From the NCBI GenBank assembly GCA_964652795.1, contig CAZZBF010000001.1, positions 49,593-95,018 on the forward strand: DNA of 45,426 nt, in the 5' to 3' direction. Origin of the DNA: an uncultured Syntrophales bacterium. Its GTDB lineage: Bacteria; Desulfobacterota; Syntrophia; Syntrophales; JADFWA01. The translations under genes and the position numbers were made by a program. Under the pieces are notes generated by a model, which saw only the letters and a program-made list of their open reading frames with translations, was not told where the DNA came from and did not search any database. Shown here one piece after another: positions 2,513 through 38,146 of this stretch; within the stretch, counting starts at the first letter, position 1; every line of letters begins with the position of its first letter.

Positions 2513-4459
2513 TCAATTAACCCGTCTATTAACGTCAATTAACCATTGGTATAGATCAAAAGCCCGCTGGGTGGCGACATGGTCAATACCATTTCTCCTC
2601 ATTGAATCCTGATAGCGCTGATATACTTCGCTAATCAATTCTGATAACACATCCTTCTTCATTTTTCCCGTTATAACTTCTCCATCTGGAGGAAGAGAAC
2701 CGCCTGATTGTACATATTCCTGTTTGATCTGATTGTACATTTCAGACAGCAGCAAGTATCTTTCAAAAGCTTGTCCAACCGGATGATCATTGCCAAAACC
2801 ACCAGATTGCGAGCCGCCATATTGCTTGTAAAGGTTTTGATAATTATGATATGTTTCTGCGTATAATTGCTTCAAAACAAGCATCTTTTTCTGTGCATTG
2901 CTCAGTTCGAATGTTGCAACTGTTCCACCGGGAGATGCTCTTGTATTTCTACCGCTTTCTTTATTATAAAGAGCTCGCACCTCATTGTGCGAAATTGCCC
3001 GGTTGTAAATACGGACATCGTCTAATTTGCCCTTAAAATGATGTGTGTTCCCGCTTTCTCCGCTACCGATATAAGTTATTTTCCCGTTGGGTAACTGCTC
3101 CGCCATGTTCTCATTTAAGGTAGTAAGTAAATTCCCGTTAACATAAACAGATGTTTTCAACCGGCTACCTTCTTTTTTCCCAACAATTGCATAATGATAC
3201 CATCTGTCCGTCTTGAATTTAAATTCTCCGTATGCACGATCCAGATGTCTACCCATATCCCAGAAGGGAATAAGACCGGGATCTACCATCATCCTGTAAT
3301 CACAGAAATTGCCGACACTCATCACACCATTGTATCCATTATATCCGGAAGAAATATAAATCCATGCACTCATCGTAAATGCATTTGTATTTGAAAAATT
3401 GAATCCTCCGGCAGGCTGCGGTGCTGTTATAACCGTCTTCCCATCCAGTTCAACCGCTGAATTGATAACACCGTTGACAAATCTGGCTACCCCTCTGGGC
3501 GTACCATTATTTCCATTGCCTGAGTGGTCTTGAAAGTCACCGTCAAAAGGATAGTAAGCGACAAGCCCTATATTATTACCTTTAATAGTGAGAGGTTCCG
3601 AAGGTGTAAGAACGGTGCCGGGTTTGTCCGGTGCGCCGCAGACGACCAGATTTGCCCTGCAGGCTACAGGGTCATATTTTTCGTGAGCGCCATTGATTGA
3701 AACATTGATATGTGTGCAGTTTTTGTCTTTCCTGCAAGGAGCGATGTACTGGCCTACAGGAAACTCCGTTTTGGGTCCCTTGTATATCGTCCGCCAGTAG
3801 CCACCCTGGTAGCGAGCGTGTAAAGTTACGTACGTAAGCCTTCCGGAAACTGCCTCCACTCGAAGGATATCATCGTCACGCAGAGAGTCGAGTCTGATGG
3901 CGGCATAGTTACCCCCAAGTTTCTTTGTGCGGCGGTCACCACTACCGTCGGTATAAACCTGGGACAGAGTACGACAGCCGGATTGTCCGACTTTCGATCC
4001 GGAGATTCCCGGTGGTGTCATAAAACTGCTCGGCTTTTCTTGCGCATAACCGCTGCGTGTCCAAATCAGGTCACCCATGTTACCACGGGAATCACACCAG
4101 GTGCCGGTGAATTTATTCGGGTTAACCATTACAGCACTTATAATTGAATAATATTTAAAGCCGCTTCCAAGAGGATGTTTTTGAACAACGTAAATCAGAT
4201 TTTTCTGTTTGGAAAAACCCTGACCCTCAAAAATACTGGGGTTTCCTTCAGTGTCACCGATATATTTCCCGAAGAATTTGTCCCCTTGACGTGTAAAATT
4301 GACTTTATTGGACAGTATTTTTCCGCTAATAACTCCGTCAATTTTGAAATCACACGTTTTTTCCCAGACACCTTCAAGATAATACCTGTCAACATATTGA
4401 GCAAATGATATCGAGCTGGCTAAAAATAGAAAAATTACGGCTATGATATATTTTCTCAT
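2513..4459 (-). CDS. Secreted protein with a LamG / concanavalin-A-like lectin domain
   Basis: Start reassigned to MRKYIIAVIFLFLASSISFAQ (signal peptide), with GGAAAGGAAA 7 nt upstream of the ATG at 4459. The C-terminal half carries a LamG-type signature (LDGKTVITAP...FTMSAWIY...GKLDDVRIYNRAISHNEVRALY). Confidence 0.7.
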   Translation of the reverse strand: MRKYIIAVIFLFLASSISFAQYVDRYYLEGVWEKTCDFKIDGVISGKILSNKVNFTRQGDKFFGKYIGDTEGNPSIFEGQGFSKQKNLIYVVQKHPLGSGFKYYSIISAVMVNPNKFTGTWCDSRGNMGDLIWTRSGYAQEKPSSFMTPPGISGSKVGQSGCRTLSQVYTDGSGDRRTKKLGGNYAAIRLDSLRDDDILRVEAVSGRLTYVTLHARYQGGYWRTIYKGPKTEFPVGQYIAPCRKDKNCTHINVSINGAHEKYDPVACRANLVVCGAPDKPGTVLTPSEPLTIKGNNIGLVAYYPFDGDFQDHSGNGNNGTPRGVARFVNGVINSAVELDGKTVITAPQPAGGFNFSNTNAFTMSAWIYISSGYNGYNGVMSVGNFCDYRMMVDPGLIPFWDMGRHLDRAYGEFKFKTDRWYHYAIVGKKEGSRLKTSVYVNGNLLTTLNENMAEQLPNGKITYIGSGESGNTHHFKGKLDDVRIYNRAISHNEVRALYNKESGRNTRASPGGTVATFELSNAQKKMLVLKQLYAETYHNYQNLYKQYGGSQSGGFGNDHPVGQAFERYLLLSEMYNQIKQEYVQSGGSLPPDGEVITGKMKKDVLSELISEVYQRYQDSMRRNGIDHVATQRAFDLYQWLIDVNRRVN

Positions 4460-4727
4460 GATTTGTTTCCTTTCCTGGCTAATGATTGTTTTAATAACGA
4501 TAAGAATCATTATCAAACATCATAAGACATAAAATACTTTTCAGGTTTGTGTCTCGTGTTTAATTACTATTGGAATAAGTACCTTCCGAGAATTAAGATT
4601 TTACCTCTTTAACCAACCTGATTTACATGAAACAATTAGCAACAAGTATTTACTATATTCTTAATACACACTTTGGTAATTGTTGTCAATTTTTTGAACT
4701 TCCGGACATTACAAACAACTTGCACGT

Positions 4728-6938: not shown

Positions 6939-8372
6939 CTACTTTTTTTCTGTTTTTTCCGGCCGGGTCACATTCCCTGTCATGACATACTCGTGAATGC
7001 TCGCGGCGGCGGTTTTTCCGGCGCCCATCGCGGAGATTACCGTGGCGGCGCCCGTTACGATATCACCGCCGGCGAAGACGCCTTTTTTGGAAGTTTCGAG
7101 CGTGTCCGGATCACACTCCAGCGTGCCCCAGCGGGTAGTCTTCAGATCCGGCGTGGTCATAGGAATAAGCGGATTCGGAAGGTTGCCGAGCGCGGGGATA
7201 ACCGTGTCACATTCAATGATAAACTCGCTGCCCTCGACGGGTACCGGCCTGCGGCGACCGGAATCGTCCGGCTCACCGAGTTCCATCTTTACGCACTCAA
7301 CGGCTTTTACCCTGCCCTCTTCGTCGCCGATGATCCGTACAGGATTTGTGAGGAGTTTAAATTCAATACCTTCTTCCTCGGCGTGGTGGATTTCCTCATC
7401 ACGTGCCGGCATCTCCTCGCGGCTTCGCCTGTAAACTATCACAGATTCAGCCCCGAGCCTGATGGCGGTCCGGGCCGAGTCCATCGCCACGTTGCCGCCT
7501 CCTATGGTAACGGTTCTCCGGCTCCTGATAGGCGCGGTTCCGTACTCGGGAAACCTGAATGCCTTCATCAGGTTCGATCTTGTGAGGTACTCGTTTGCCG
7601 AATAGACACCGACGAGGTTTTCGCCGGGGATACCCATGAACATGGGAAGTCCGGCGCCGGTAGCTATAAATACGGAATCGTAACCATTTTGAAGAAGTTC
7701 CTCCACGGTGCGCGCTTTGCCGACTACATAATCCGTAATTATCTCAACGCCGAGCCTTTTAAGGTAGTCGATCTCATACTTGACGATTTCCTTGGGCAGG
7801 CGGAATTCGGGGATGCCGTATACCAGAACCCCTCCCGTTTCGTGAAGCGCTTCAAAGACTGTGACGCCATGCCCTAATTTAATAAGATCGCCGGCAACGG
7901 TGAGTCCCGCGGGCCCCGCTCCGATTATAGCCACCTTTTTGCCCGTCGGTTCGGCGATTTCAGGCATTTCAGACTTACCGTTTCTCCGTTCATAATCGGC
8001 GGCAAACCGCTCAAGGCGTCCAATAGCCACCGGTTCACCCTTTTTACCGAGGACGCATTTAATCTCGCACTGAGTTTCCTGGGGGCATACACGGCCGGTA
8101 ACCGCGGGCAGGGCATTCTGTTCTTTCAGCTTCCACGCCGCCTCAATAAATTTGCCTTCCTCGATGAGTTTGATGAAACCCGGGATATCTATGTTCACAG
8201 GACACCCCGTTACGCAAAGAGGTTTCTTGCATTTGATACAGCGCTTTGCTTCCATCACGGCAAGCTCTTCAGTGAAACCGTACGGCACTTCCTCAAAATT
8301 GTGCTTTCGTCTTTTCGGGTCCTGTTCAGGCATTTTCTGCCTGGGAATTTTCTGTCTTTCCTTGGGATCCAT
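6939..8372 (-). CDS. NfnB / SudA / GltD-like FAD- and NAD(P)-binding oxidoreductase with two [4Fe-4S] clusters
   Basis: GltD-type N-terminus (EAKRCIKCKKPLCVTGCPVNIDIPGFIKLI...GRVCPQETQCEIKCV) followed by a Rossmann fold (KVAIIGAGPAGLTVAG). The length of 477 aa fits the family. AGGAA lies 6 nt upstream of the ATG. It is the last gene of the nuoE-F-G/nfnA operon. Confidence 0.8.
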   Translation of the reverse strand: MDPKERQKIPRQKMPEQDPKRRKHNFEEVPYGFTEELAVMEAKRCIKCKKPLCVTGCPVNIDIPGFIKLIEEGKFIEAAWKLKEQNALPAVTGRVCPQETQCEIKCVLGKKGEPVAIGRLERFAADYERRNGKSEMPEIAEPTGKKVAIIGAGPAGLTVAGDLIKLGHGVTVFEALHETGGVLVYGIPEFRLPKEIVKYEIDYLKRLGVEIITDYVVGKARTVEELLQNGYDSVFIATGAGLPMFMGIPGENLVGVYSANEYLTRSNLMKAFRFPEYGTAPIRSRRTVTIGGGNVAMDSARTAIRLGAESVIVYRRSREEMPARDEEIHHAEEEGIEFKLLTNPVRIIGDEEGRVKAVECVKMELGEPDDSGRRRPVPVEGSEFIIECDTVIPALGNLPNPLIPMTTPDLKTTRWGTLECDPDTLETSKKGVFAGGDIVTGAATVISAMGAGKTAAASIHEYVMTGNVTRPEKTEKK

Positions 8373-8399
8373 ATCAATTCCTGATCTTTCTTTTAGCGG

Positions 8400-10910
8400 T
8401 CATATATCCGAGTGCCGGCAGTTATACATTTTGAAAGGCTCCTGGGACAGGGCCTCGACTTCTTCCTTTTTAAACGCGGCCTGCCTCTGCATGAGTTCAA
8501 TCCAGTTAATCTTCAGTCCGTCCAGAAACGGACCATCCACACACGCGAATTTCGTATCCTCCCCGACACTGACACGGCATACCCCGCACATCCCCGTACC
8601 GTCAAGCATCAGAGAGTTCATAGCGGTTTGAGTCGGGATATTGTGCTCCCTGGCGACTTCGGAAACGAGCATCATCATAAACGTACACCCGATTATATAC
8701 GACTGGTCTATCTTTTCACCTCTTTCAACCAGCATCGAAATTACCTCCTGCACGCCACCCTTGATTCCCGTGGAACCGTCTTTTGTAACGATAATCAATT
8801 CATCGCAGTTCCGGGAAAGTTTCTCCTCCCAGTGGAGCAGGTAATGGCTCGATGCCTCCTCTATGCAGATAACCCTGTTGCCGGCTTCTTTCATGGCACG
8901 GGCAATCGGCAGCATCGCGCCGACACCGTAACAGCCTCCGGCACAGACAACAGTGCCGTATTTTTTAACTTCGACAGGGGTTCCGAGCGGCCCGGCAAGG
9001 TGAGCGAGATATTCGCCGGCGTGTGTGTTCGCCATCTCGCGGCTTGACCTGCCGACCTCATGAATTACCATCGTAACGGTACCCTCTTTACGGTTAAAAT
9101 CCGATATGGTGTAAGGAATACGCTCGGATTTCTCGTTCACCATCGCTATAACAAACTGTCCGGGCTGACACTTTTCCGCGATCACCGGCGCGTCTACCGT
9201 TATCATATGGGTATTCGGCACAATCTCCGCCTTTTCAACAATTTTAAACGGCCTTTCTTCCGCGGGCTCGTCATCTGTTAATTTTTCAGCGGTTTCCTCG
9301 AGAGTAAGGCTCCTAAGCGCGCGTACAATATCAGCAAGTTTGTGTCCCCTGTAAAAACGGGGCAGGGCGGCAACGTCATCGAGGGGTGACGGATCGGGTG
9401 GTGCCGGTACATCGTAAACCACGCCCTTTTTAATTAATTCTTCATTGATATCGGCGGTGGATTCGAAATCGAAACTCGAAGCACCCATTTTTTGAGCGAT
9501 ATCGCAGACAATCTTCCAATCAGGAAACAGACTGTAAGGAGGAGTACCCGCGGCGGTCAGTGTTTTAATCTCCCCGGATGAGTTGAGAAACGTGCCGTCA
9601 GTTTCGGCAAGCGCCGCCGCCGCGATCACAACATCTGCCGCTTTTTCGGTTTCGGAGGGAAACATGTCTGCAACGATAATCGTTTCAAGCCTTTGGAGCA
9701 CGGCCGGTTCGAGATAATTGCCGGTAGAGTAGAGAGCTTTGACTGTTCCTTTTTCCATTGCTTCGGCCACCGGACCGGGTTCTATCACAAGAGTTTCACA
9801 GCGGGATGAGGCCACGGCAAAGTTGTCGGATTTCATGACTTCCTTAGCAAATTTTTTCAGCAGATAAATTTCCTCGCGGGTGGCCGACGAATTGGCAATA
9901 AGGGCAAACTGTTCTCCCGAATAGGTCCCGAGTTTTTCCGCGGCCATGGCAACCGCATCCTTATATCCCGCTTTTATCAGGCCGTCTTCGATACGCACCT
10001 GGTGTGAAACCATTCTCAAAGGGTTGTCCAAAAGCTGCGGCAGCACGAACCGCCCCACCGCGCAGATACGATCGTCTCTCGTAAATCCTGTCATTCCTGA
10101 ACCGATCACCCGCCCGTTTTTGAGCTTGAGGCGAATTGAACATCCGTGAGGACAAACCACGCATGTGGAGTCTTCCGTCGAAGCCGCGGCTCCGTACCAT
10201 TTTGCAAACCTGTCGGACAAAGCGCCCGTCGGACAGATATCAATGCACGCTCCGCAAAACTGGCAGTCCGTTTCAGTATGATCCCTGTGGAATGCCGTCC
10301 CGATGCGGGCATCCTTGCCGCGGTTGATAAAATCAATTGTCCCTTTTCCGTGGATCTTTTCGCAGATGCGGGCACACCGACCGCAAAGGACACAGAGATT
10401 GTAATCTCTGTCCATAAACGGATCGTTCCGCTCAATATCAAGATCTCTGTAGATTATCGGGACTTCAAATTCATTTATCTGGTATTCATCAGCGAGTTTT
10501 CTCAGTTCGCAGTTAGCCACGTTACTGCAAAAGATACAGCGCGTGGCTTTGCCGGTCTTGAAGGGAAGCGGCCGGTACTTCTCGCACAACTCGCGGTGAT
10601 AACAGGCGAGACATGGGCTGGTGTGGCCGCTGAGCATCAGTTTTATCACATTTCTGCGGAGTTCAATGATTTCAGGCGACGTCGTTTTGACGACCATCCC
10701 GTCGACGGACGGCGTGGTGCACGAGGTCGGAAATCCCCGCATTCCTTCGATTTCAACAATACACAACCGACACGCCCCGTATGGTTCAAGCGCCGGGTGA
10801 GCGCAGAGAGTGGGAATTTCTATTCTCCCCTTCCGGGCGGCTTCGAGTACCGTATCGCCTTTTTCGGCCTCTATTTTTTTTCCATCTATCGTAAGTATTA
10901 TCTTGCCCAT
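8400..10910 (-). CDS. Fusion protein: NuoG/HndD-like N-terminal Fe-S module with a truncated molybdopterin-oxidoreductase-like domain, plus a C-terminal NfnA/PyrK/SudB-like FAD-[2Fe-2S] module
   Basis: The N-terminus carries a 2Fe-2S ferredoxin fold (CAHPALEPYGACRLC), a His-ligated cluster, 2x[4Fe-4S] (CVLCGRCARIC, CQFCGACIDICP) and CVVCPHGC. The C-terminal ~285 aa (from about nt 9255) carry an FNR-like RIPYTIS motif and a PyrK-type terminal cluster motif CGVCRVSVGEDTKFACVDGP. Confidence 0.75.
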   Translation of the reverse strand: MGKIILTIDGKKIEAEKGDTVLEAARKGRIEIPTLCAHPALEPYGACRLCIVEIEGMRGFPTSCTTPSVDGMVVKTTSPEIIELRRNVIKLMLSGHTSPCLACYHRELCEKYRPLPFKTGKATRCIFCSNVANCELRKLADEYQINEFEVPIIYRDLDIERNDPFMDRDYNLCVLCGRCARICEKIHGKGTIDFINRGKDARIGTAFHRDHTETDCQFCGACIDICPTGALSDRFAKWYGAAASTEDSTCVVCPHGCSIRLKLKNGRVIGSGMTGFTRDDRICAVGRFVLPQLLDNPLRMVSHQVRIEDGLIKAGYKDAVAMAAEKLGTYSGEQFALIANSSATREEIYLLKKFAKEVMKSDNFAVASSRCETLVIEPGPVAEAMEKGTVKALYSTGNYLEPAVLQRLETIIVADMFPSETEKAADVVIAAAALAETDGTFLNSSGEIKTLTAAGTPPYSLFPDWKIVCDIAQKMGASSFDFESTADINEELIKKGVVYDVPAPPDPSPLDDVAALPRFYRGHKLADIVRALRSLTLEETAEKLTDDEPAEERPFKIVEKAEIVPNTHMITVDAPVIAEKCQPGQFVIAMVNEKSERIPYTISDFNRKEGTVTMVIHEVGRSSREMANTHAGEYLAHLAGPLGTPVEVKKYGTVVCAGGCYGVGAMLPIARAMKEAGNRVICIEEASSHYLLHWEEKLSRNCDELIIVTKDGSTGIKGGVQEVISMLVERGEKIDQSYIIGCTFMMMLVSEVAREHNIPTQTAMNSLMLDGTGMCGVCRVSVGEDTKFACVDGPFLDGLKINWIELMQRQAAFKKEEVEALSQEPFKMYNCRHSDI

Positions 10911-10968
10911 TATTGTCTTTACTCCTGTTTTTCCGAGCCTGTCTCACACGGGCATATAAACCGGAATA

Positions 10969-12786
10969 TCATTTCCGGCCTGATGTCTTTTGTACCGCGT
11001 CAAAGGGACACACACTGAAGCACATGCCGCAGCGTATACATCTTTCTTCGTGGATGACAAAAGCCTCCGGCGGTTTCACGGAACCTGTAATAGCGTCGGT
11101 CGGACAGTCTTTCTTGCAGAGACCGCATGACTTGCACGTTTCGGCATCGATGGCGTATGTCAAAAGCGCCTTGCACGCAAGAGCGGGACACCGTCCTTCG
11201 GTAATATGAGCTTCGTATTCGTCCCGAAAATGTTCGATAGTTGTAAGTACCGGGTTCGGGGCCGTCTGGCCGAGACCGCAAAGTGAGGCGTCTTTGATAA
11301 CCCCGCACAATTTCTCCAGAGTATCGATGTCATCCGGCCTCCCTTTCCCTTCCGTAATGTCATTCAGAATGCGAAGCACGTGCTGTGTGCCCATTCTGCA
11401 TGGAGTACATTTGCCGCAGGATTCATTTTCCGTAAAGGAAAGGAAGTATCTCGCGATATCAACCATGCAGGAATCCTCGTCCATAACAACCATACCGCCT
11501 GAACCCATGATCGAACCGACCTTCGCGAGCTCATCAAAATCTACCTTCATATCGAGAAATTGAGCCGGAATGCAGCCGCCGGACGGACCGCCTGTCTGCA
11601 CCGCCTTGAATTTTTTGCCGTCCGGGATACCTCCGCCGATTCCGAATATTATTTCGCGAAGGGTTGTTCCCATCGGAACTTCTATCAAGCCGCTGTTCGC
11701 TACTTTTCCGGTAAGGGCGAAGACCGCGGTGCCGGGACTTTTTTCAGTGCCGATACCGGCAAACCAGTCTGCCCCTTTATTAATAATCTCCGGAATGTAT
11801 GACAGGGTTTTTACGTTATTGATTATGGTCGGCCTGCCCCACAGCCCCTTCTGCGCTGGGAAAGGCGGACGTGTACGGGGCATCCCTCTGGATCCTTCGA
11901 TAGAAGCTATCAACCCGGTCTCCTCTCCGCACACAAAAGCTCCCGCGCCCTGGAATATTTTTAAATCGAAGCTGAAATCACTGCCCGCTATGTTGCCGCC
12001 TAAAAATCCTTTCTCCCTGGCCTGTGATACGGCGATGTAAAGGCGCTTGACGGCTAACGGGTATTCCGCGCGCACATATATAAAACCTTTCGTCGCGCCT
12101 ATGGCGTAGCCCGCGATGATCATTCCCTCTATAACCTGATGCGGGTTGGCTTCCAGAATAGACCTGTCCATAAACGCGCCCGGGTCACCTTCATCCGCGT
12201 TACAGATTATGTATTTCTGATCGGCGTTCTCATCCCGGCAAAACTTCCATTTTACGGCCGCCGGAAAACCGGCGCCGCCTCTTCCACGGAGTCCCGATTT
12301 TTTTATCGTTTCGATAACATCTTCCGGGGTCATTTCATGGAGGACTTTTTCGGTCGCCTGATACACCCCCGCGTTAATGGAATCCTCGATTACCTCGGGG
12401 TTGATGTGACCGCAATTTTTAAGGACTATACGTTCCTGTCCCGCGTAAAAAGGAATGTCCCTGTAGCACTTGACCGGTTCGTCAGTTGCGGGATCACGAT
12501 AAAACAGGCGTTCAACCGGTTTATTATTCTTCAGGTGAGACTCGACAATTTCGGGAACATCTTTTTCCTTCACTGCCGAGTAAAAAACACCTTCAGGTTC
12601 AATAATAACTATCGGGCCTCTCTGGCAGAAACCGTGACAGCCCGTAAATTTCACGTTAATTCCCCCGAGGCCGGCCTTCTTAACTTCGGCTTCGATAGCA
12701 CCGTAAATATCAACAGACCCCGAAGACACACAGCCCGTACCCAGGCAAACAAGAACAGTGCGGCCATTGTCATTTGAATTAGTCAT
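10969..12786 (-). CDS. NuoF / HydB / HndC-like NAD(P)H-binding flavoprotein subunit with an N-terminal thioredoxin-like [2Fe-2S] domain and C-terminal 2x[4Fe-4S]
   Basis: Motifs GRGGAGFP and ESCGKCTPCR (NuoF FMN/NADH/4Fe-4S), an N-terminal CLGTGC...CHGFCQRGP, and C-terminal CKSCGLCKKDCP and CIRCGMCFSVCP. The ATGA start/stop overlap couples it to the upstream nuoE-like gene. Confidence 0.85.
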   Translation of the reverse strand: MTNSNDNGRTVLVCLGTGCVSSGSVDIYGAIEAEVKKAGLGGINVKFTGCHGFCQRGPIVIIEPEGVFYSAVKEKDVPEIVESHLKNNKPVERLFYRDPATDEPVKCYRDIPFYAGQERIVLKNCGHINPEVIEDSINAGVYQATEKVLHEMTPEDVIETIKKSGLRGRGGAGFPAAVKWKFCRDENADQKYIICNADEGDPGAFMDRSILEANPHQVIEGMIIAGYAIGATKGFIYVRAEYPLAVKRLYIAVSQAREKGFLGGNIAGSDFSFDLKIFQGAGAFVCGEETGLIASIEGSRGMPRTRPPFPAQKGLWGRPTIINNVKTLSYIPEIINKGADWFAGIGTEKSPGTAVFALTGKVANSGLIEVPMGTTLREIIFGIGGGIPDGKKFKAVQTGGPSGGCIPAQFLDMKVDFDELAKVGSIMGSGGMVVMDEDSCMVDIARYFLSFTENESCGKCTPCRMGTQHVLRILNDITEGKGRPDDIDTLEKLCGVIKDASLCGLGQTAPNPVLTTIEHFRDEYEAHITEGRCPALACKALLTYAIDAETCKSCGLCKKDCPTDAITGSVKPPEAFVIHEERCIRCGMCFSVCPFDAVQKTSGRK

Positions 12787-13268
12787 TTCTTCTTCTCCTT
12801 GCTAATGGCCTTCAATATCTTTGTTGCCTTTTGAGGAGTTAAATGGCCGTGCACTTTCTGGTCAATTGTCATACAGGGAGCCAGAGCACAGCATCCTATG
12901 CATGCCACGGTTTCGAGAGAAAATTTTCCGTCATCGGTCGTTTCACCCTCTTTTATGTTAAGGCGTCTCTTAACTTGTTCGAGTATTTGTTCCGCGCCTC
13001 CGACGTGGCATGCCGTTCCACGGCACAGGCATATTACATGGTCGCCCGGGCGCGTGAATTTGAATTGAGTATAAAATGTGGCCACGCCGTAGATATAGCT
13101 CTGTGAGACATCGAGGTATTTCGCGATGCGCTTTACCGAGTCTTCAGATATATATCCGAATTTTTCCTGCACTCCCTGCAGAATCGGTATTAAGCTGTCC
13201 AGATACCGATTATAAGTTTGAAGTATTTTTTGTAATTCTTCTGAAACGTTCGCCACCGGTATTTTCAA
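12783..13268 (-). CDS. NuoE / HydC-like [2Fe-2S] thioredoxin-like subunit
   Basis: Carries CLCRGTACHVGG and CIGCCALAPCM. The start codon at 13266-13268 is TTG, not ATG, so start confidence is moderate; AGGAAGGA lies about 15 nt upstream. Confidence 0.75.
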   Translation of the reverse strand: MKIPVANVSEELQKILQTYNRYLDSLIPILQGVQEKFGYISEDSVKRIAKYLDVSQSYIYGVATFYTQFKFTRPGDHVICLCRGTACHVGGAEQILEQVKRRLNIKEGETTDDGKFSLETVACIGCCALAPCMTIDQKVHGHLTPQKATKILKAISKEKKK

Positions 13269-16542: not shown

Positions 16543-16571
16543 TGACAATTGCTTATCTGGGTGATATTAGA
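16543..16571 (+). promoter_or_regulatory. Sigma70-like promoter candidate (TTGACA-N17-TATTAG) overlapped by the inverted repeat GCAATTgacAATTGC
   Basis: TTGACA at 16543-16548 and TATTAG 17 nt downstream. A perfect 6-bp inverted repeat GCAATT-N3-AATTGC, together with a third GCAATT direct repeat, spans the -35 element. This is a possible operator. Confidence 0.3.
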
Positions 16572-16596
16572 TCGGCAAAAGGTTACCGATTGCCAT

Positions 16597-17616
16597 ATGA
16601 ACACCACTTTCCATCCCAACAACGTAGAGAAAAAAACCATAATCATCTTGGAGATTCTGGCTAACGCAGAATGCCCAATGGGGTCTCGATTGATATCAAG
16701 ATGCCTGAAGGATCAAGGCGTGACATTGAGTGAAAGAGCTGTCAGATATCATCTCAAGTTGATGGATGAACGTGGGCTCACAAAGTATATAGACAAGCAT
16801 GTTGGCAGAACTATTACGGAGTTGGGCATTGAGGAGATAGGCAGTGCCAGAGTGCAGGACAAAATAGGATTCGCTATTTCACGAATAGAAAATCTTGCTT
16901 TCAGAACAACCTTTGATCCTCAAAAGGGGCAAGGTCTTCTCCCCGTAAATGTCTCTTTTTTCCTTAAAGAACAATTCAAAGAGGCATTGGAAGCTATGGT
17001 TCCAGCTTTTAATGCTGGCCTTTTCGTAAGCGAACTTGTGGCTTTTGCCGAAGCAGGAAAAAGGCTTGGCGGGATACTTGTTCCGGAAGGCAGGGTCGGA
17101 TTCGCAACCGTCTGCAGTATTGTAATTAATGGTGTGCTTCTGAAAAACGGCGTCCCCCTGGACTCCAAGTTCGGAGGCATCTTGCAGTTAAAGGACGGAA
17201 AACCCCTGCGCTTCGTCGAGCTTATCTATTATTCGGGCTCTTCTCTAGATCCCTCGGAGGCTTTTATACAGGGAAAGATGACTTCCGTCGGGAAGGCATC
17301 GGAAAAGGGAGAAGGAAAAATCGTCGCAAACTTTCGAGATTTTCCTGTTCTTTGTCTAAATACGGTGGAGAAATTAACCTGTGAACTGAAGCGGGTAGGG
17401 ATAGGAGGTGTTCTTTCGATCGGCAAGGTAAGCGAACCGATCTGTCAGATTCTGGTAGATGTGAACAAGGTTGGGATGATCCTTGTGGGAGGAATGAACC
17501 CCGTGGCATGTGCCCAGGAAGCAGGATTCAGTGCGGAGAATTATGCCATGTCAACGGTAATGGATTACGGTGAATTAATTAATTTCCAAGAATTACGTAA
17601 CAAAGAATTATCATAG
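16597..17616 (+). CDS. NrpR-like nitrogen regulatory protein (N-terminal winged HTH plus a DUF128/NrpR-type domain). Assignment is tentative.
   Basis: N-terminal wHTH (KKTIIILEILANAECPMGSRLISRCLKDQGVTLSERAVRYHLKLMDERGL), about 270 aa of glycine-rich alpha/beta domain, and a length of about 340 aa match the single-domain NrpR architecture. It lies immediately upstream of gdhA. Start taken at ATG 16597 (MNTTFHP) rather than the upstream TTG. Confidence 0.45.
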   Translation: MNTTFHPNNVEKKTIIILEILANAECPMGSRLISRCLKDQGVTLSERAVRYHLKLMDERGLTKYIDKHVGRTITELGIEEIGSARVQDKIGFAISRIENLAFRTTFDPQKGQGLLPVNVSFFLKEQFKEALEAMVPAFNAGLFVSELVAFAEAGKRLGGILVPEGRVGFATVCSIVINGVLLKNGVPLDSKFGGILQLKDGKPLRFVELIYYSGSSLDPSEAFIQGKMTSVGKASEKGEGKIVANFRDFPVLCLNTVEKLTCELKRVGIGGVLSIGKVSEPICQILVDVNKVGMILVGGMNPVACAQEAGFSAENYAMSTVMDYGELINFQELRNKELS

Positions 17617-20621: not shown

Positions 20622-21401
20622 TTACACAACAGTACGAACCGGAACCCCTTCCTGTTCGAGATAGGACTTGATCTCCTCGACGGTATAGTGTTGGAAATGC
20701 ACCATGGAAGCAATGAGTGCCGCGTCCGCACCTGCTTTTACAAAAACATCCCTGAGATGCTCCGGCCTGCCGGCACCCCCCGAGGCAATGACGGGGATGT
20801 TCACCGCAGAGGATATCAAAGCTGTCAAATTCAGTTCATACCCATCATTTGTTCCGTCGGCATCAATAGAATTGAGACAGATCTCGCCGGTACCCATATC
20901 CCGGGCCTTTTTTGCCCACTCAACCGCATCAACACCCATAGGAGTCCTGCCGCCGTTTATCCAGACCTCGTATCCCGATGGTAGTTCAGCGCTCTTTCCC
21001 ACTTTTTTTGCATCCATCCCCAATACGATACATTGACTTCCGAAAATCTTCGCCCCTTCGGAAATCAGCTCCGGATTCAAAACGGCAGCGGTATTAACGC
21101 TGATTTTTTCAGCCCCGGCTTTTAATACATCATACATATCGGCAAGTGAACTGATACCGCCTCCCACTGAAAAGGGAATAAAGATGTTTTTTGCGACATC
21201 GCTTACTACATCGATTATAATTTTTCTCTTATCCGATGACGCGGTAATATCATAAAATACCAGTTCATCAACACCCTGGTCGTAATATTCCCTGGCCATC
21301 TCAACCGGATCACCGATATCGACATTGCCTTTAAATCTGATTCCTTTTGTTGTTTTGCCTTCTCTTACATCGAGGCAAATAATAATTCTTTTACTGAGCA
21401 T
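20622..21401 (-). CDS. hisF: Imidazole glycerol phosphate synthase cyclase subunit HisF, or a HisF-family paralogue
   Basis: [17 protein letters not shown]...[31 protein letters not shown]...[13 protein letters not shown]. The start ATG at 21401 lies 2 nt after the hisH stop codon. Confidence 0.85.
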
Positions 21402-21403
21402 TG

Positions 21404-22015
21404 TTATGCCGTCCCGTCCCACTCACAAAAATTTTTTAATATCCGAAGGCCGTGTCTTCCGCTTTTTTCAGGGTGAAACTGCATTGCGAGAACGTTCCCC
21501 TTCCCGATGATTGATGCAAACTCAACCCCGTATTCGGCCGTTGCTACGACGTCGTCGCGCCGCTCCGGATCGGGATAATATGAATGGACAAAATAGTATT
21601 GCGCTCTCTCATCAATACCGGCGAGAACGGGATGCGGGCGGACAGCGCTAATATTGTTCCATCCCATGTGGGGAATTTTCAAATTGGCAGTACGAAACTT
21701 TTTCGCACTACCCCGTATCACACCGAGACAGGAAGCGCTATTTTCTTCGCTCCTGTCGAGGACTATCTGAGCACCGAGACATATCCCCAGAAACGGGACT
21801 CCTCCGCCAATCACGTCATATATCACTTGATCGAGACCCGACGTTTTCATGACATCCATCGCGGCACCTGCCGCTCCAACGCCCGGTAATATGACTCTTT
21901 CGGCAGACAGTATTTCCAGCGGCCTGTCGGTTATACGGCACTCCTTACCTATGTGGACAAGGGCCCTCTCAACGGACGTAAGATTTCCCGCTTTGTAATC
22001 AATTATTGCTATCAT
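21404..22015 (-). CDS. hisH: Imidazole glycerol phosphate synthase glutaminase subunit HisH (class I GATase)
   Basis: [19 protein letters not shown]...[11 protein letters not shown]...[11 protein letters not shown]...HSYY. It overlaps the upstream GlmS-like gene's stop by 17 nt. Confidence 0.85.
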
Positions 22016-25000
22016 GCTCGTTCGATGAATCAGTCTCCTTTAATTTCATCATTTTGCCGACAATCATATCGACACCCTCGCCCAAGAGAAATTCAATAGA
22101 AATTTTGTCAAGGTACGTATCGTCCCAGTTAAGGTTATACTCATTGACAAGATTGAAGATTTTATTGAATTTATCTCCGAGAACTTCTTTCTTCTCCGCC
22201 GCCGTCAAATCGTCCCTGAAAACAACATGAAGTAGCAGGATATGTCTGATCCTATGGTTTTTACCCAGGACCGACATGATAATGATCGAAGCTTTATCCA
22301 ACTTCCCAAGTCCCGCATATATTTCTCCGGTTCTTATGATCGTTCGCTTGGTTCCCAGAAGAGCGCGTTTTTCTTCAACCCTCGATTTCATTTCCAGTGA
22401 AATTCCGCCTCTTTCACGAATTGATATAACTGTATCTTCTCCCGGGGTTCCGTCGACATCAAGATTTTCAACGTCATACAGGGTATAACCACGAATTTTG
22501 GATAGTGCCCCTTGGAGCCTTCGCGCGGCGGCCCCATCTTTGGTCGTAAGATTTTCCAGCGAAAATTCGAGATCTTTCAAGAAATCGAAGATGATTCCTT
22601 TGATCATTTCACCCTTTCTGCTTGTACCCACCGTAACGGTTTTCGCCTGGTGCCTGATTGCATCGATGGGGCGTGACAACTCATCGATGGCTTTGCCAAG
22701 ACAGATATCCAGCATGTCGAGAGGAGATGAGGAAATTCTTTTGTCTCTAAATTCTTCCCAGAAGTCCTCCAGCGGCAATTTTCCGATACTATACTTTAAA
22801 AGAAGCGGCATATCTGAGGCAATCTCGGTGCTCAGGGAAGAAAAAAAGCCCTTATTTTTTCTTAAATTAAATGCTTTGGTAAAATCCGCTACGATTTTAT
22901 GGAGTCCAGTGTTTGCAATCTTTTCGAAGAGTGTTTCGTTTCTGGCATCAAGTTCCAGCACCTTGTGTGATAAGGTATTCCTGAAATTCTTAAAAAATTC
23001 CCCTTCTTCATTAATACTGCAGGCCGCGTAATAACCCCATATATGTCCCGCTAACGTATTAAGTATGACCGCTGTAGAGAATGTTGACCTCGGGACGTAA
23101 ATGACCGAATCCGCCACATGATCAAATCTCGTTTCATCTTCGTCTGTAATGACAACAACCGATCCCTCATGAGCTTTAAAGATTGCAGCGTCTTTAACTA
23201 TATCTTCTACAACGGTTTCGGGGGTACCTGCCGCACAGACGATGATAAGCGGTTCGGCGGAAAGGTCTATATGTTTCTTGTTTTCCACTATATCGGACGA
23301 TATGGTCTTGTAACACAGTTCGCTCAACTTTATTCTGATCTCATCGGCGGCAACTTTATTTGAACCGCTCCCGACCACTGCCCAGTATTTCTTTTCTTTT
23401 ACAACGTCCCATGCCGATTCACGTATTTTTTCCTTAATAGCAATGACTCTGTCCATTTTTCCGGGAGCACCCTCCAGGTCGACGAGTTCCCTAGTGATTT
23501 GATCATCCGTCATTGTACCCGATATCTTTGCAAAATAGAGCGCGAGGATGTACCCGGCGATTATCTGAGAGTAAAATGCCTTTGTCGATGCAACGGACAT
23601 TTCTATATCTCTACCATCACTGGTATAAAAAACCCCATCGGTCATGTGGGTAATATCCGACTGTCGCCGGTTCACGATAGCTATGGAATGTGCTCCACGT
23701 TCTATTGCCATTGCAACCGCTCGATTTGTGTCAGTCGTCGTGCCCGATTGCGTAACCGCAATGACTAGGGCATGATCAAATTTGTCCTGGAGGGAAAATC
23801 CGCTTAATTCCGAAGCTGTCTTCGCCTCAATATGCAAGTCTCGACCCCTTAAATATTTTGAAAAAGCCTCAACTATTGCAGCGCCGGCTACAGCGGCCGT
23901 TCCCTGGCCTACGACAAAAATAGTTTTGATATTACCGTTTATAATTGCCTCCGACAATGCAGGGGGTATGATATCATTTCCCAGATTGAAGACAACGTTA
24001 TCAGTCGCTCCGTCCTCTTTATATTTTATATGATATTTGCCGCGCATCGTCTTTTGCGCGGAAAGGGGTGCCTCGAAAATCTCTTTCAACAGATAGTGGG
24101 GATAGCCCTTTCGATCGATATCGCGCGTGGTAATCTCCGCTTTCGCCACACAATTATCAGAAATAGGAAGAGCGTGTCCGTCGTAATACAAGGCCTTGAT
24201 TCCCTGAACACCTCCCCCGGCTTTTCGATCAAGGACAAAAATTTGTCCTTTCGTCGCTTGATCTCCCGGAACTCTTTCCGATTCACCATCCATCTTTATG
24301 AACTTAGATGTTACTTCCATCAGCCCGTATAATTCGGAGGAATACATGAATTGTTCGTCACAAAGGCCTATATAAAGAGACTGGCCGCTTCCGCGGAGCG
24401 CAAGAAATACTTTATCTGGTTCGAGGTCACTGCTCATGGCGATAGCGTGAGACCCTTCAAAATCATTCAGGGCAAGGCGAAAGGCCTCCAGAAGAGAGTG
24501 TCCCGAGGAAAGATACCGCTCGATCTGAAGTGGTACTATCTTCGTATCCGTTTTCACGGTATCGTCTATGAGTGATTGTCCTCCTGTTTCAATCCCCACC
24601 CTTAGTGTAGAGTAATTATCTATATCCCCGTTTAAAGCCGCATTGATTGACCAGTTCCCTTCTCCGTAGTGAGGATAATACTTTAGCGGCAAAAAAGATC
24701 CCGAGTCTTCATCGAATACTTTGTCCAGGGTGAAATTATTGATGGGATGACAATTTTCTTCAGTGATGGACCCCACCGATGCCCATCTTGTATGAGCCAT
24801 ATAGGAATCCATTGCAATCGGTTTATGAATAACCGTCTGGAATATCCGATCATTTCGGATTCGATCTCGCAAATACCTGCCGTTTTCCCCAAGTTCACCG
24901 GTTACCGATGCTTTTTTATACGTAAACGATAGAATGACCGGGATGCCTTCTCTGCCATTTTTTGTTGCGTGGATAGAACCGTCATGTAGATCGCCCGGTT

Positions 25001-25793
25001 CTACCCGGTTCAGCCATTCATCATAGAGATTTTTTGTTTTAAAATTCTCGATTAACGTATCGAGATCCTTCGTTTGCTCCATAGTAAAAGTGATTTGTAT
25101 ACCAGCAGAATCTCTCCCCCTTACCTCTAAATTGTCAATTGCATTTAATAACAGATTGATATTTCTGTATTTTCTAAGACTTTCCCGGGGAATATCCGCT
25201 TTTTTGTCCGTTCCGGCAAGAAAGAAAAATCCGTCAATATTGGCAAGGATGTCTTTTTCGAGGGCCCACGACGCATCTTTCAGACGAATGATCGAATTGT
25301 TAATATGTTCCATCTGTCCGGAGGTGAAACCGAACACATATTTTTCAATAAAGTCTTCTTCTTGTTCTATAAAGGCCTTCAGGTTCTCCGAAAGACGGGA
25401 AATATTTTGTATACCGTCATCCGTAAAAAAAACGTGCTCAAAAGTTGAATCTTCCTTCAAAATCTTGATAGCATTTTCTAAATCATTAAGTGCCGCTGGG
25501 CTTCCAAGGTAATCAACAGTATTCAGCGATTTATTGACTATTTTTTCTATACCGGTCCCCTGAATCACATTACAATTACTGGTAATGCGATTGACGATGT
25601 CATCGTCTCCGGCTGCGGCATCTCCTTTGATCGTAAGGATTCCCGCAAGACCGCACAACAGGGTATCGGGAAGAATAGGAAATAGAAGTATCGAACCGGG
25701 TGGCACAGTTCGAATATCACGCCCGATATAAATGTTTAGATACTTGAAAAAATTCCATATTCTTGCTGAAATTTTTTTGATGGGTTTTAACAT
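21999..25793 (-). CDS. Expanded (1264 aa) GlmS-family class-II glutamine amidotransferase with tandem SIS domains
   Basis: A 46-aa N-terminal leader precedes CGLAGIL (Ntn Cys). A ~190-aa insertion precedes RGRDSAGI, followed by HTRWASVG and NGDIDNY. The GlmS inter-domain linker KGYPHYLLKEIFEAP is present. Two SIS domains follow (GQGTAAVAG, VTQSGTTTDT) and a GlmS-like tail AKTVTVG. After that comes a ~230-aa C-terminal region of unknown nature. Confidence 0.7.
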   Translation of the reverse strand: MLKPIKKISARIWNFFKYLNIYIGRDIRTVPPGSILLFPILPDTLLCGLAGILTIKGDAAAGDDDIVNRITSNCNVIQGTGIEKIVNKSLNTVDYLGSPAALNDLENAIKILKEDSTFEHVFFTDDGIQNISRLSENLKAFIEQEEDFIEKYVFGFTSGQMEHINNSIIRLKDASWALEKDILANIDGFFFLAGTDKKADIPRESLRKYRNINLLLNAIDNLEVRGRDSAGIQITFTMEQTKDLDTLIENFKTKNLYDEWLNRVEPGDLHDGSIHATKNGREGIPVILSFTYKKASVTGELGENGRYLRDRIRNDRIFQTVIHKPIAMDSYMAHTRWASVGSITEENCHPINNFTLDKVFDEDSGSFLPLKYYPHYGEGNWSINAALNGDIDNYSTLRVGIETGGQSLIDDTVKTDTKIVPLQIERYLSSGHSLLEAFRLALNDFEGSHAIAMSSDLEPDKVFLALRGSGQSLYIGLCDEQFMYSSELYGLMEVTSKFIKMDGESERVPGDQATKGQIFVLDRKAGGGVQGIKALYYDGHALPISDNCVAKAEITTRDIDRKGYPHYLLKEIFEAPLSAQKTMRGKYHIKYKEDGATDNVVFNLGNDIIPPALSEAIINGNIKTIFVVGQGTAAVAGAAIVEAFSKYLRGRDLHIEAKTASELSGFSLQDKFDHALVIAVTQSGTTTDTNRAVAMAIERGAHSIAIVNRRQSDITHMTDGVFYTSDGRDIEMSVASTKAFYSQIIAGYILALYFAKISGTMTDDQITRELVDLEGAPGKMDRVIAIKEKIRESAWDVVKEKKYWAVVGSGSNKVAADEIRIKLSELCYKTISSDIVENKKHIDLSAEPLIIVCAAGTPETVVEDIVKDAAIFKAHEGSVVVITDEDETRFDHVADSVIYVPRSTFSTAVILNTLAGHIWGYYAACSINEEGEFFKNFRNTLSHKVLELDARNETLFEKIANTGLHKIVADFTKAFNLRKNKGFFSSLSTEIASDMPLLLKYSIGKLPLEDFWEEFRDKRISSSPLDMLDICLGKAIDELSRPIDAIRHQAKTVTVGTSRKGEMIKGIIFDFLKDLEFSLENLTTKDGAAARRLQGALSKIRGYTLYDVENLDVDGTPGEDTVISIRERGGISLEMKSRVEEKRALLGTKRTIIRTGEIYAGLGKLDKASIIIMSVLGKNHRIRHILLLHVVFRDDLTAAEKKEVLGDKFNKIFNLVNEYNLNWDDTYLDKISIEFLLGEGVDMIVGKMMKLKETDSSNEHDSNN

Positions 25794-25860: not shown

Positions 25861-27477
<1,617 letters not shown>

Positions 27478-34489: not shown

Positions 34490-34505
34490 GGCAACATGTG
34501 TGCCA
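34490..34505 (-). promoter_or_regulatory. Sigma54 (-24/-12) promoter for the GS-GOGAT-amidotransferase operon
   Basis: The minus strand reads TGGCAC-acatg-TTGCC (GG-N10-GC), about 145 nt upstream of the glnA ATG at 34344. Confidence 0.55.
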
Positions 34506-36504: not shown

Positions 36505-36520
36505 TGGCACCATATTTGCT
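36505..36520 (+). promoter_or_regulatory. Sigma54 (-24/-12) promoter for the amtB-glnB-glnA operon
   Basis: TGGCAC-catat-TTGCT (GG-N10-GC), about 50 nt upstream of the amtB ATG. Imperfect inverted-repeat arms GTACCACCATTAT (36408-36420) and ATAAGTGGTAAT (36442-36453) lie 60-100 bp upstream as a candidate UAS. Confidence 0.6.
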
Positions 36521-37807: not shown

Positions 37808-38146
37808 ATGAAATATGTCGTCGCAATTATTCAACCCCACAAGTTGGAAGAAGTAAAACAAGCCCTTGAAAATGTGGAAGTTCATTTGATGACCGTATCT
37901 AATGTCCTCGGTAGGGGAAGACAAAAAGGATTTGCCGAGGTTTATCGTAGCGTCAAGGAAGTCGGTCTTCTGAAGAAACTAAAAATCGAGATTGCCATTA
38001 ATGAAGATTTTGTCGAACCAACAATCGATGCAATCACAAAAGGGGCATTTTCCGGAAATCCCGGCGACGGAAAGATATTTGTTCTCGATCTCCATGATGT
38101 CGTTCGTATCGGTACCGGTGAACGGGGCGGAAAAGCAATCGGGTAA
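37808..38146 (+). CDS. glnK: Nitrogen regulatory protein PII (GlnB/GlnK)
   Basis: MKYVVAIIQPHKLEEVKQAL...GRGRQKGFAEVYRSV (T-loop with Tyr)...GDGKIFVLDLHDVVRIGTGE, 112 aa. AGGAGG RBS is present. It is 11 nt after amtB. Confidence 0.9.
   Translation: MKYVVAIIQPHKLEEVKQALENVEVHLMTVSNVLGRGRQKGFAEVYRSVKEVGLLKKLKIEIAINEDFVEPTIDAITKGAFSGNPGDGKIFVLDLHDVVRIGTGERGGKAIG

Follow-up and report, generated by a model that had tools for sequence, protein, structure and literature searches.

Within a 45,426-nt stretch of contig CAZZBF010000001.1 from an uncultured Syntrophales bacterium (hereafter the window), we found that an open reading frame (ORF) with a 1264-residue product is likely to encode a long-form glutamine:fructose-6-phosphate amidotransferase, i.e., a GlmS-type glucosamine-6-phosphate (GlcN6P) synthase, here called long GlmS. 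In the reading that we favor, the enzyme would lose an N-terminal leader by cleavage, its add-on domains would gate the catalytic tail, and the adjoining hisH and hisF genes would be co-regulated with it without sharing its function. The assignment to GlcN6P synthesis follows from the combination of conserved chemistry, a GlmS-like fold and hexosamine-pathway genes that recur as neighbors in relatives. GlmS catalyzes the committed step to uridine diphosphate N-acetylglucosamine (UDP-GlcNAc), and hence to peptidoglycan, lipopolysaccharide and other glycans, and is both a textbook amidotransferase and a drug target. The protein is an exact match to a database entry (P0001), close relatives are encoded in Syntrophales metagenome-assembled genomes (MAGs), and it belongs to a large, widespread and uncharacterized family of 1140 to 1290 residues found in Thermodesulfobacteriota and several other phyla.

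Both active sites of GlmS are retained

A preliminary description of the window, made from its letters and ORFs, had reported a GlmS-family protein of double size with all catalytic landmarks in place, and both statements are borne out: the ORF encodes 1264 residues against 609 in Escherichia coli GlmS, and every listed motif could be located in an alignment of the protein with some 40 homologues and E. coli GlmS. In the glutaminase domain the nucleophile is Cys47 within CGLAGI, with RGRDSAG at residue 225, HTRWAS at 334, N388-G389 and D416 farther along the chain, and the inter-domain motif RKGYPHYLLKEI lies at 561. The isomerase half has the phosphate loop TQSGTTTDT at 681, VASTKAF at 734, K822, E825 and H841 as the equivalents of E. 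coli K485, E488 and H504, and QAKTVTV at 1049, in which K1051 corresponds to E. coli K603.

Taken by function, the glutamine site retains the counterparts of E. coli R26, D29, R73, W74, N98, G99 and D123 on an N-terminal nucleophile (Ntn) glutaminase fold, and the isomerase site retains the two-SIS module, the S-Q-S-G-x-T loop (as T681-Q682-S683-G-T-T686), K822, E825, H841 and K1051. Residues 385 to 924 align with E. coli GlmS 95 to 588 (phmmer against PDB 1jxa, E = 3e-22), and the isomerase module as a whole aligns with E. coli residues 243 to 588 with conservation of T681-Q682-S683-T686, V734-K738, K822, E825 and H841. The catalytic residues of both active sites were invariant across close and distant family alignments, and across phyla; the Lys-bearing catalytic tail was likewise invariant in family alignments A1 and A3.

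A conserved leader precedes the nucleophile

In Ntn amidotransferases the free alpha-amino group of Cys1 serves as the general base, and in PurF and GltB propeptides preceding this residue are removed. By the same mechanism and precedent, the 46 residues ahead of Cys47 are probably a propeptide that is cleaved off, as the preliminary description had suggested on seeing them. The segment is conserved at the amino acid level: G24 and P39 are invariant, and F38 almost so. In an AlphaFold model of residues 1 to 565 (predicted template modeling score, pTM, 0.82), the leader forms a helix at residues 2 to 17 and two short strands, followed by a predicted flexible linker at 38 to 46 with a predicted local distance difference test score (pLDDT) below 50.

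Among 254 full-length family members, 165 have a leader 20 or more residues long (median Cys position 46), and the leader motif (G..P ... hydrophobic-hydrophobic-x-F/L-P) occurs in 148 of these 165. A further 79 members are leaderless and start with Met-Cys; these have kept insert 1 along with the four-helix bundle and C-terminal domain described below, and their full-length identity to the window protein is 36 to 40%. That one family contains both forms also makes it probable that the leader is a propeptide. Two further class-II amidotransferases encoded in the window, glutamate synthase (GltS) subunit 1 and AsnB, start with MCG.

The codon directly before Cys47 is TTG (25653-25658, - strand), a possible start codon, though this is probably a coincidence; a minor leaderless isoform is possible. 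Internal initiation at this L46 codon was ruled out as an explanation of the leader by the protein-level conservation just described and by the residue preceding the Cys in relatives, which is mostly C, F, P, S or N, and mostly not encoded by a start codon.

The leader also bears on a reading in which the protein is a catalytically silent sensor or scaffold, derived from GlmS, that binds glutamine or sugar phosphates and regulates enzymes encoded next to it, such as PyrG, with an uncleaved leader blocking the glutaminase. Such a role would suit the conservation of the leader, the sensor-like character of the add-on domains and the persistent adjacency of the gene to pyrG, but a non-enzyme would not be expected to keep every catalytic residue of both sites invariant across phyla, and the leaderless third of the family starts with Met-Cys as active GlmS enzymes do. 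We consider this reading extremely improbable.

The additional segments are predicted to be folded domains

The size of long GlmS is accounted for in the alignment and in structure models by segments placed within and after the canonical modules (Table 1). The preliminary description had noted an internal insertion of about 190 residues, which is real, although by alignment it comprises three separate inserts in the glutaminase domain (residues 58 to 212, about 237 to 312, and about 352 to 378). It had also noted a C-terminal extension of about 230 residues; an extension is present and folded in the model, but measures 209 residues after KTVTV, made up of a domain of about 190 residues and a short unconserved tail. 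Overlooked altogether was an insertion of about 110 residues (927 to 1040) that separates the second SIS domain from the KTVTV tail.

In the structure models, insert 1 (about 155 residues) is a long-helix bundle with pLDDT near 90, and the C-terminal alpha/beta domain is folded as well. Mean column identity over about 115 homologues was 0.4 to 0.7 in the inserts, against 0.98 in the catalytic tail, and the C-terminal domain has invariant polar residues that include Y1106, R1138, K1149, D1166 and E1218. The alternative that the extensions are low-complexity linkers failed on these conserved columns and on AlphaFold pLDDT values of about 80 to 90. Because the add-ons are conserved across homologues and confidently modeled, we conclude that they are four or five conserved, family-specific domains, folded as predicted, and not linkers.

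Their assignment is another matter. Pfam and NCBIfam scans of the whole protein returned GlmS, SIS and glutamine amidotransferase (GATase) matches only and none for any add-on, and a profile of residues 927 to 1250 found nothing below E = 0.24 among PDB sequences, in keeping with the earlier statement that the extra domains could not be assigned from sequence.

The most distinctive structural fact of long GlmS is that its Lys-bearing tail is internal, lying between the four-helix bundle and the alpha/beta domain. In characterized GlmS enzymes this tail ends the chain and closes the isomerase active site. In an AlphaFold model of residues 927 to 1250, i.e., with the isomerase domain left out, residues 1042 to 1063 are disordered, which is explicable because the segment is expected to dock on the isomerase site.

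The family is widespread and recurs beside hexosamine genes

A first homology search yielded more than 120 full-length homologues of 1220 to 1290 residues, which share 52 to 89% identity with the window protein and come from MAGs of Syntrophales, Syntrophobacterales, Desulfobacterales and Desulfomonilia; databases label them only as "SIS domain-containing protein" or, in the case of JGI, as GlmS. A profile of distant members added relatives in Planctomycetota, Eremiobacterota/Xenobia, Myxococcota, Riflebacteria and Elusimicrobiota. Searching exhaustively with just the C-terminal domain gave 150 cluster representatives, and all full-length matches carry the domain at the C terminus of a GlmS-type protein except for two TPR/PPR repeat proteins (P0253 and P0271), which were dismissed as repeat artefacts. 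Four very divergent relatives, three of about 1540 residues (P0245, P0279 and P0282) and one of 1152 (P0254), combine a weak match to the GlmS isomerase domain with the same C-terminal domain; their N-terminal 400 to 600 residues or so have no database match, and P0254 starts with MCG while the 1540-residue forms do not. Literature searches for long GlmS, for glmS in Syntrophus or Planctomycetes and for glmS-pyrG linkage returned nothing relevant from a searchable literature that is incomplete. Long GlmS, an uncharacterized form of a very well-known enzyme, occurs widely among uncultured lineages.

The gene neighborhood was compared across 92 related loci, of which 80 are metagenomic and the other 12 come from genomes and from contigs that encode individual homologues. 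The most widely conserved neighbor is pyrG, the cytidine triphosphate (CTP) synthase gene, which is directly adjacent on either side in 36 of the 53 loci with both flanks available; it lies upstream of long GlmS in the clade of the window and downstream in a clade of about 50% identity. In 30 loci long GlmS adjoins a GlmU-acetyltransferase-like gene with a 424-residue product (NCBIfam GlmU, E = 3e-9). In 12 loci glmM is no more than six genes away (one representative scored 578, above the TIGR01455 cut-off of 447.55); eight loci have a nagB-like gene nearby and 11 have guaA. Together, pyrG and the GlmU-like, glmM and nagB-like genes in relatives point to a role in GlcN6P synthesis. Leaderless members in other phyla stand in unrelated gene contexts.

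The 424-residue protein was seen in the clade of about 50% identity (positions 5982-7256 in L069, and 29 other loci). Its N-terminal 230 residues or so resemble only the acetyltransferase half of GlmU, matching E. coli GlmU residues of about 240 to 450, the left-handed beta-helix half; it has no uridylyltransferase domain and no Pfam match, and its last 190 residues or so have no database match. It could be a stand-alone glucosamine-1-phosphate acetyltransferase.

Several observations weigh against long GlmS being a GlcN6P synthase of the kind that we propose. The protein falls below both curated GlmS cut-offs (PRK00331, 249.3 against 381; TIGR01135, 226.5 against 418.05), for which the inserts are in part responsible; the position of E. 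coli S303 is occupied by Ala (GQGTAA); and KTVTV (residues 1051 to 1055) does not end the polypeptide, as 209 residues including a folded domain follow. The best Foldseek PDB matches of the C-terminal domain are PAS, LOV, GAF and IclR-C sensor folds, all with E of at least 0.05 and nonsignificant, and the matches of this type to the four-helix bundle are generic. The window itself has neither a glmM nor a glmU-like gene, and both the removal of the leader and the activity of the enzyme are predictions.

The low family scores and the change at S303, along with the large lineage-specific domains, could instead indicate a specialized paralogue that aminates another ketose phosphate or makes a special amino sugar, with a canonical glmS elsewhere in the genome for housekeeping. 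Yet the remaining catalytic and fructose-6-phosphate-contacting residues are kept (the TQSGxT loop, VASTK, K822, E825, H841 and K1051), relatives have core hexosamine genes as neighbors (glmM, the GlmU-like acetyltransferase gene and the nagB-like gene), and other phyla carry the gene amid unrelated housekeeping genes. A separate canonical glmS turned up neither in the window nor in about 1.4 Mb of related loci. We regard a specialized paralogue as unlikely, and retain GlcN6P synthase as the probable function.

hisH and hisF are probably co-regulated neighbors

Downstream of long GlmS, the ORF that begins at the hisH ATG at 22015 overlaps the end of the long GlmS ORF (stop codon at 21999-22001) by 17 nt, and the hisF ATG at 21401 follows 2 nt past the hisH stop, confirming the tight coupling of the three genes that had been noted before. 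This hisF start gives the canonical N terminus MLSKRII and is likelier than the in-frame GTG at 21422 that bounds the mechanically called ORF and would overlap hisH by 19 nt. The absence of other his genes, also noted before, held when E. coli His proteins were searched with tblastn: hisG, hisD, hisC, hisB, hisA and hisI were found neither in the window nor in the 92 related loci. Dispersed his genes are common, so the lack of neighboring his genes is weak evidence.

The preliminary description had gone on to propose that HisHF serves the giant enzyme or a sugar-amidation step instead of histidine synthesis. Here the two proteins would be dedicated partners, either supplying ammonia or acting in an amidation like that of WbuY/WbuZ, and the overlapping or abutting junctions, the missing hisA and other his genes across all loci, and the position of hisH directly downstream in 26 of the 43 loci whose giant protein is at least 54% identical to ours are what such a partnership would lead one to expect. 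Comparison with family models and relatives does not support the proposal. HisH and HisF score above the cut-offs of the models for the true imidazole glycerol phosphate (IGP) synthase subunits (Table 1), and HisF falls below those for sugar amidation (WbuZ TIGR03572, 258.9 against 299.7; AglZ/HisF2 NF038364, 211.8 against 310). The linkage amounts to 26 of 86 loci overall, with none among the 43 below 54% identity, and is missing even from some close relatives, e.g., L015 (73% identity) and L010; hisHF is likewise absent from the surroundings of the leaderless members in other phyla. As neighbors, pyrG and the GlmU-like, glmM and nagB-like genes are better conserved. The giant enzyme has an invariant glutaminase site of its own, and genes for sugar-nucleotide modification are absent from the vicinity. 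We consider a dedicated partnership very unlikely. By their model scores, HisH and HisF look like ordinary IGP synthase subunits that are co-regulated with long GlmS and not functionally coupled to it, and a nitrogen-controlled cluster of glutamine-dependent enzymes would explain their location without any enzymatic partnership.

Nitrogen island and other features of the window

Positions 16549 to 42737 form a nitrogen island in which most glutamine-dependent amidotransferases are grouped with nitrogen-assimilation genes. Its order is an NrpR-like repressor, gdhA, cobQ, hisF, hisH, long GlmS, pyrG, a three-gene split glutamate synthase, a stand-alone class-I GATase, glnA, a GAF/sigma-54 NifA-like activator, amt, glnK, a second glnA and asnB. 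Mb-scale contigs keep the arrangement in which the sigma-54 activator is followed by glnA, the three gltS genes, pyrG and long GlmS. The window's two best matches to the sigma-54 consensus lie upstream of the first glnA (glnA1) and of amt (Table 1), though the number of matches alone is not above chance; the site at glnA1 may mark the beginning of a long operon extending from glnA through hisF.

Table 1. Positions of long GlmS, its segments and adjoining features in the window
Feature	Residues	Position	Strand	Evidence or remark
Long-form GlmS-family amidotransferase (putative GlcN6P synthase)	1-1264	21999..25793	-	ORF, NCBIfam, phmmer, homologues
Leader, putative propeptide ending right before Cys47	1-46	25656..25793	-	
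Class-II (Ntn) glutaminase domain including inserts	47 to ~545	24159..25655	-	
Insert 1, long-helix bundle within glutaminase domain	~58-212	25158..25622	-	
Insert 2	~237-312	24858..25085	-	E. coli GlmS alignment; helices and strands in model, pLDDT 75-92
Insert 3	~352-378	24660..24740	-	Alignment; lower pLDDT, 57-74
Linker and isomerase module, two SIS subdomains	561-926	23016..24113	-	Pfam SIS match 623-752
Insert 4, four-helix bundle ahead of catalytic tail	927-1040	22674..23015	-	
Catalytic tail RPIDAIRHQAKTVTVGTSR	1041-1059	22617..22673	-	K1051 = E. coli K603; column identity 0.98
C-terminal alpha/beta domain	1060-1250	22044..22616	-	pLDDT 80-91
hisH, IGP synthase glutaminase subunit		21404..22015	-	TIGR01855, 218.6 against cut-off 105.4
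hisF, cyclase subunit		20622..21401	-	TIGR00735, 352.6 against cut-off 294.55
pyrG, CTP synthase		25861..27468	-	67 nt upstream of long GlmS; Pfam CTP_synth_N and GATase
Sigma-54-type promoter-like site upstream of glnA1		34490..34505	-	One mismatch to TGGCAC-N5-TTGCW, intergenic, correct orientation
Sigma-54-type promoter-like site upstream of amt		36505-36520	+	Exact consensus match, correct orientation

The NrpR homologue, an archaeal-type nitrogen repressor (16549-17616, + strand; Pfam NRD1_2, 2.3e-81, and HTH_12), adjoins gdhA, a pairing that recurs in L001, L007, L009 and L014; the NrpR operator GGAA-N6-TTCC was not found near the nitrogen genes of the window. Between amt and the second glnA, an ORF encoding 112 residues (37808-38146, + strand) was recognized by its sequence as a PII protein of the GlnK/GlnB type. 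Outside the island, a four-gene cluster at 6939-13268 (- strand) encodes NuoE-like, NuoF-like and NuoG/molybdopterin-like proteins and a GltD-like NADPH oxidoreductase; such a gene set is usual for the electron-bifurcating or -confurcating complexes of syntrophs. The edge of the window is lower in G+C content and encodes an ankyrin-repeat protein (1137-1907, + strand) and a 667-residue protein with a Laminin_G_3/ConA-like lectin domain (2513-4516, - strand).

Proposed mechanism and significance

We propose that long GlmS would be cotranscribed with glnA, the split gltS genes, pyrG and hisHF in a nitrogen-regulated operon of glutamine producers and consumers. Its leader would be removed, probably autocatalytically as in PurF and GltB, leaving Cys47 as the N-terminal nucleophile. 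The enzyme would then hydrolyze glutamine, the ammonia would be channeled to the isomerase site, and K1051, E825 and H841 would turn fructose-6-phosphate into GlcN6P. Throughout, the Lys-bearing tail would be held between the four-helix bundle and the PAS/GAF-like alpha/beta domain, and the add-ons would most likely act as an allosteric sensor or an oligomerization module that gates the tail, placing control at the level of the protein.

In other bacteria glmS is controlled by a riboswitch or small RNAs. A search of the window for Rfam elements, the glmS ribozyme among them, found none, and the modeled add-ons may gate the tail allosterically or organize the oligomer, providing control that does without the ribozyme. 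More tentatively, one could picture a self-regulating enzyme in which the propeptide times maturation of the glutaminase, and the bundle and PAS/GAF-like module sense a metabolite and gate the tail, replacing riboswitch or small-RNA control, possibly with coupling to PyrG; we think this fuller scheme conceivable, though doubtful as a whole. Candidate ligands of the predicted sensor module are UDP-GlcNAc, GlcN6P, glutamine and 2-oxoglutarate, and long GlmS could be so persistently paired with pyrG because hexosamine and CTP synthesis are coordinated or physically coupled.

Several poorly studied phyla appear to use the double-size GlmS as their version of the enzyme. If its add-on domains sense metabolites, they would represent a new mode of regulating hexosamine flux, and the protein would be a natural test case for the control of lid closure and ammonia channeling. 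The family also matters for annotation, as its members now mostly carry the label "SIS domain-containing protein", and the compact nitrogen island should be useful for the study of nitrogen regulation in syntrophic Thermodesulfobacteriota.

Comparison with known systems

The arrangement of the locus is reminiscent of WbuY/WbuZ and AglZ/HisF2, with hisH and hisF adjacent, hisA missing and a sugar-related amidotransferase gene alongside, but unlike in those systems HisF scores below their cut-offs and above that of true hisF, and glycan-modification genes are absent from the surroundings. We know of no propeptide described for GlmS. Set against the propeptides of Bacillus subtilis PurF and of the GltB large subunit, the putative propeptide of long GlmS has its own conserved motif and predicted secondary structure and is present in about two thirds of the family. 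Eukaryotic GFAT1 and GFAT2 (e.g., PDB 6r4e) are shorter, at about 680 to 700 residues, have the tail at the C terminus and lack the leader, the four-helix bundle and the C-terminal domain; the inserts of GFAT are at positions that differ from those in long GlmS and, as far as compared, show no homology to them. The closest parallel for the catalytic modules is bacterial GlmS (E. coli, EC 2.6.1.16; PDB 1jxa, 4amv and 1xff), with which long GlmS has in common the KGxYxHxxxKEI linker, the two-SIS module and the residues C1, R26, D29, R73, W74, N98, G99, D123, S/T347-Q348-S349-T352, K485, E488, H504 and K603 (E. coli numbering). It differs from bacterial GlmS in scoring below the curated cut-offs and in having no glmS ribozyme upstream, and from the E. 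coli enzyme in its length of 1264 against 609 residues, in its 46-residue leader and three glutaminase inserts, and in the four-helix bundle before the Lys tail and the 209 residues after it, so that a tail that ends the chain in E. coli is internal in long GlmS.

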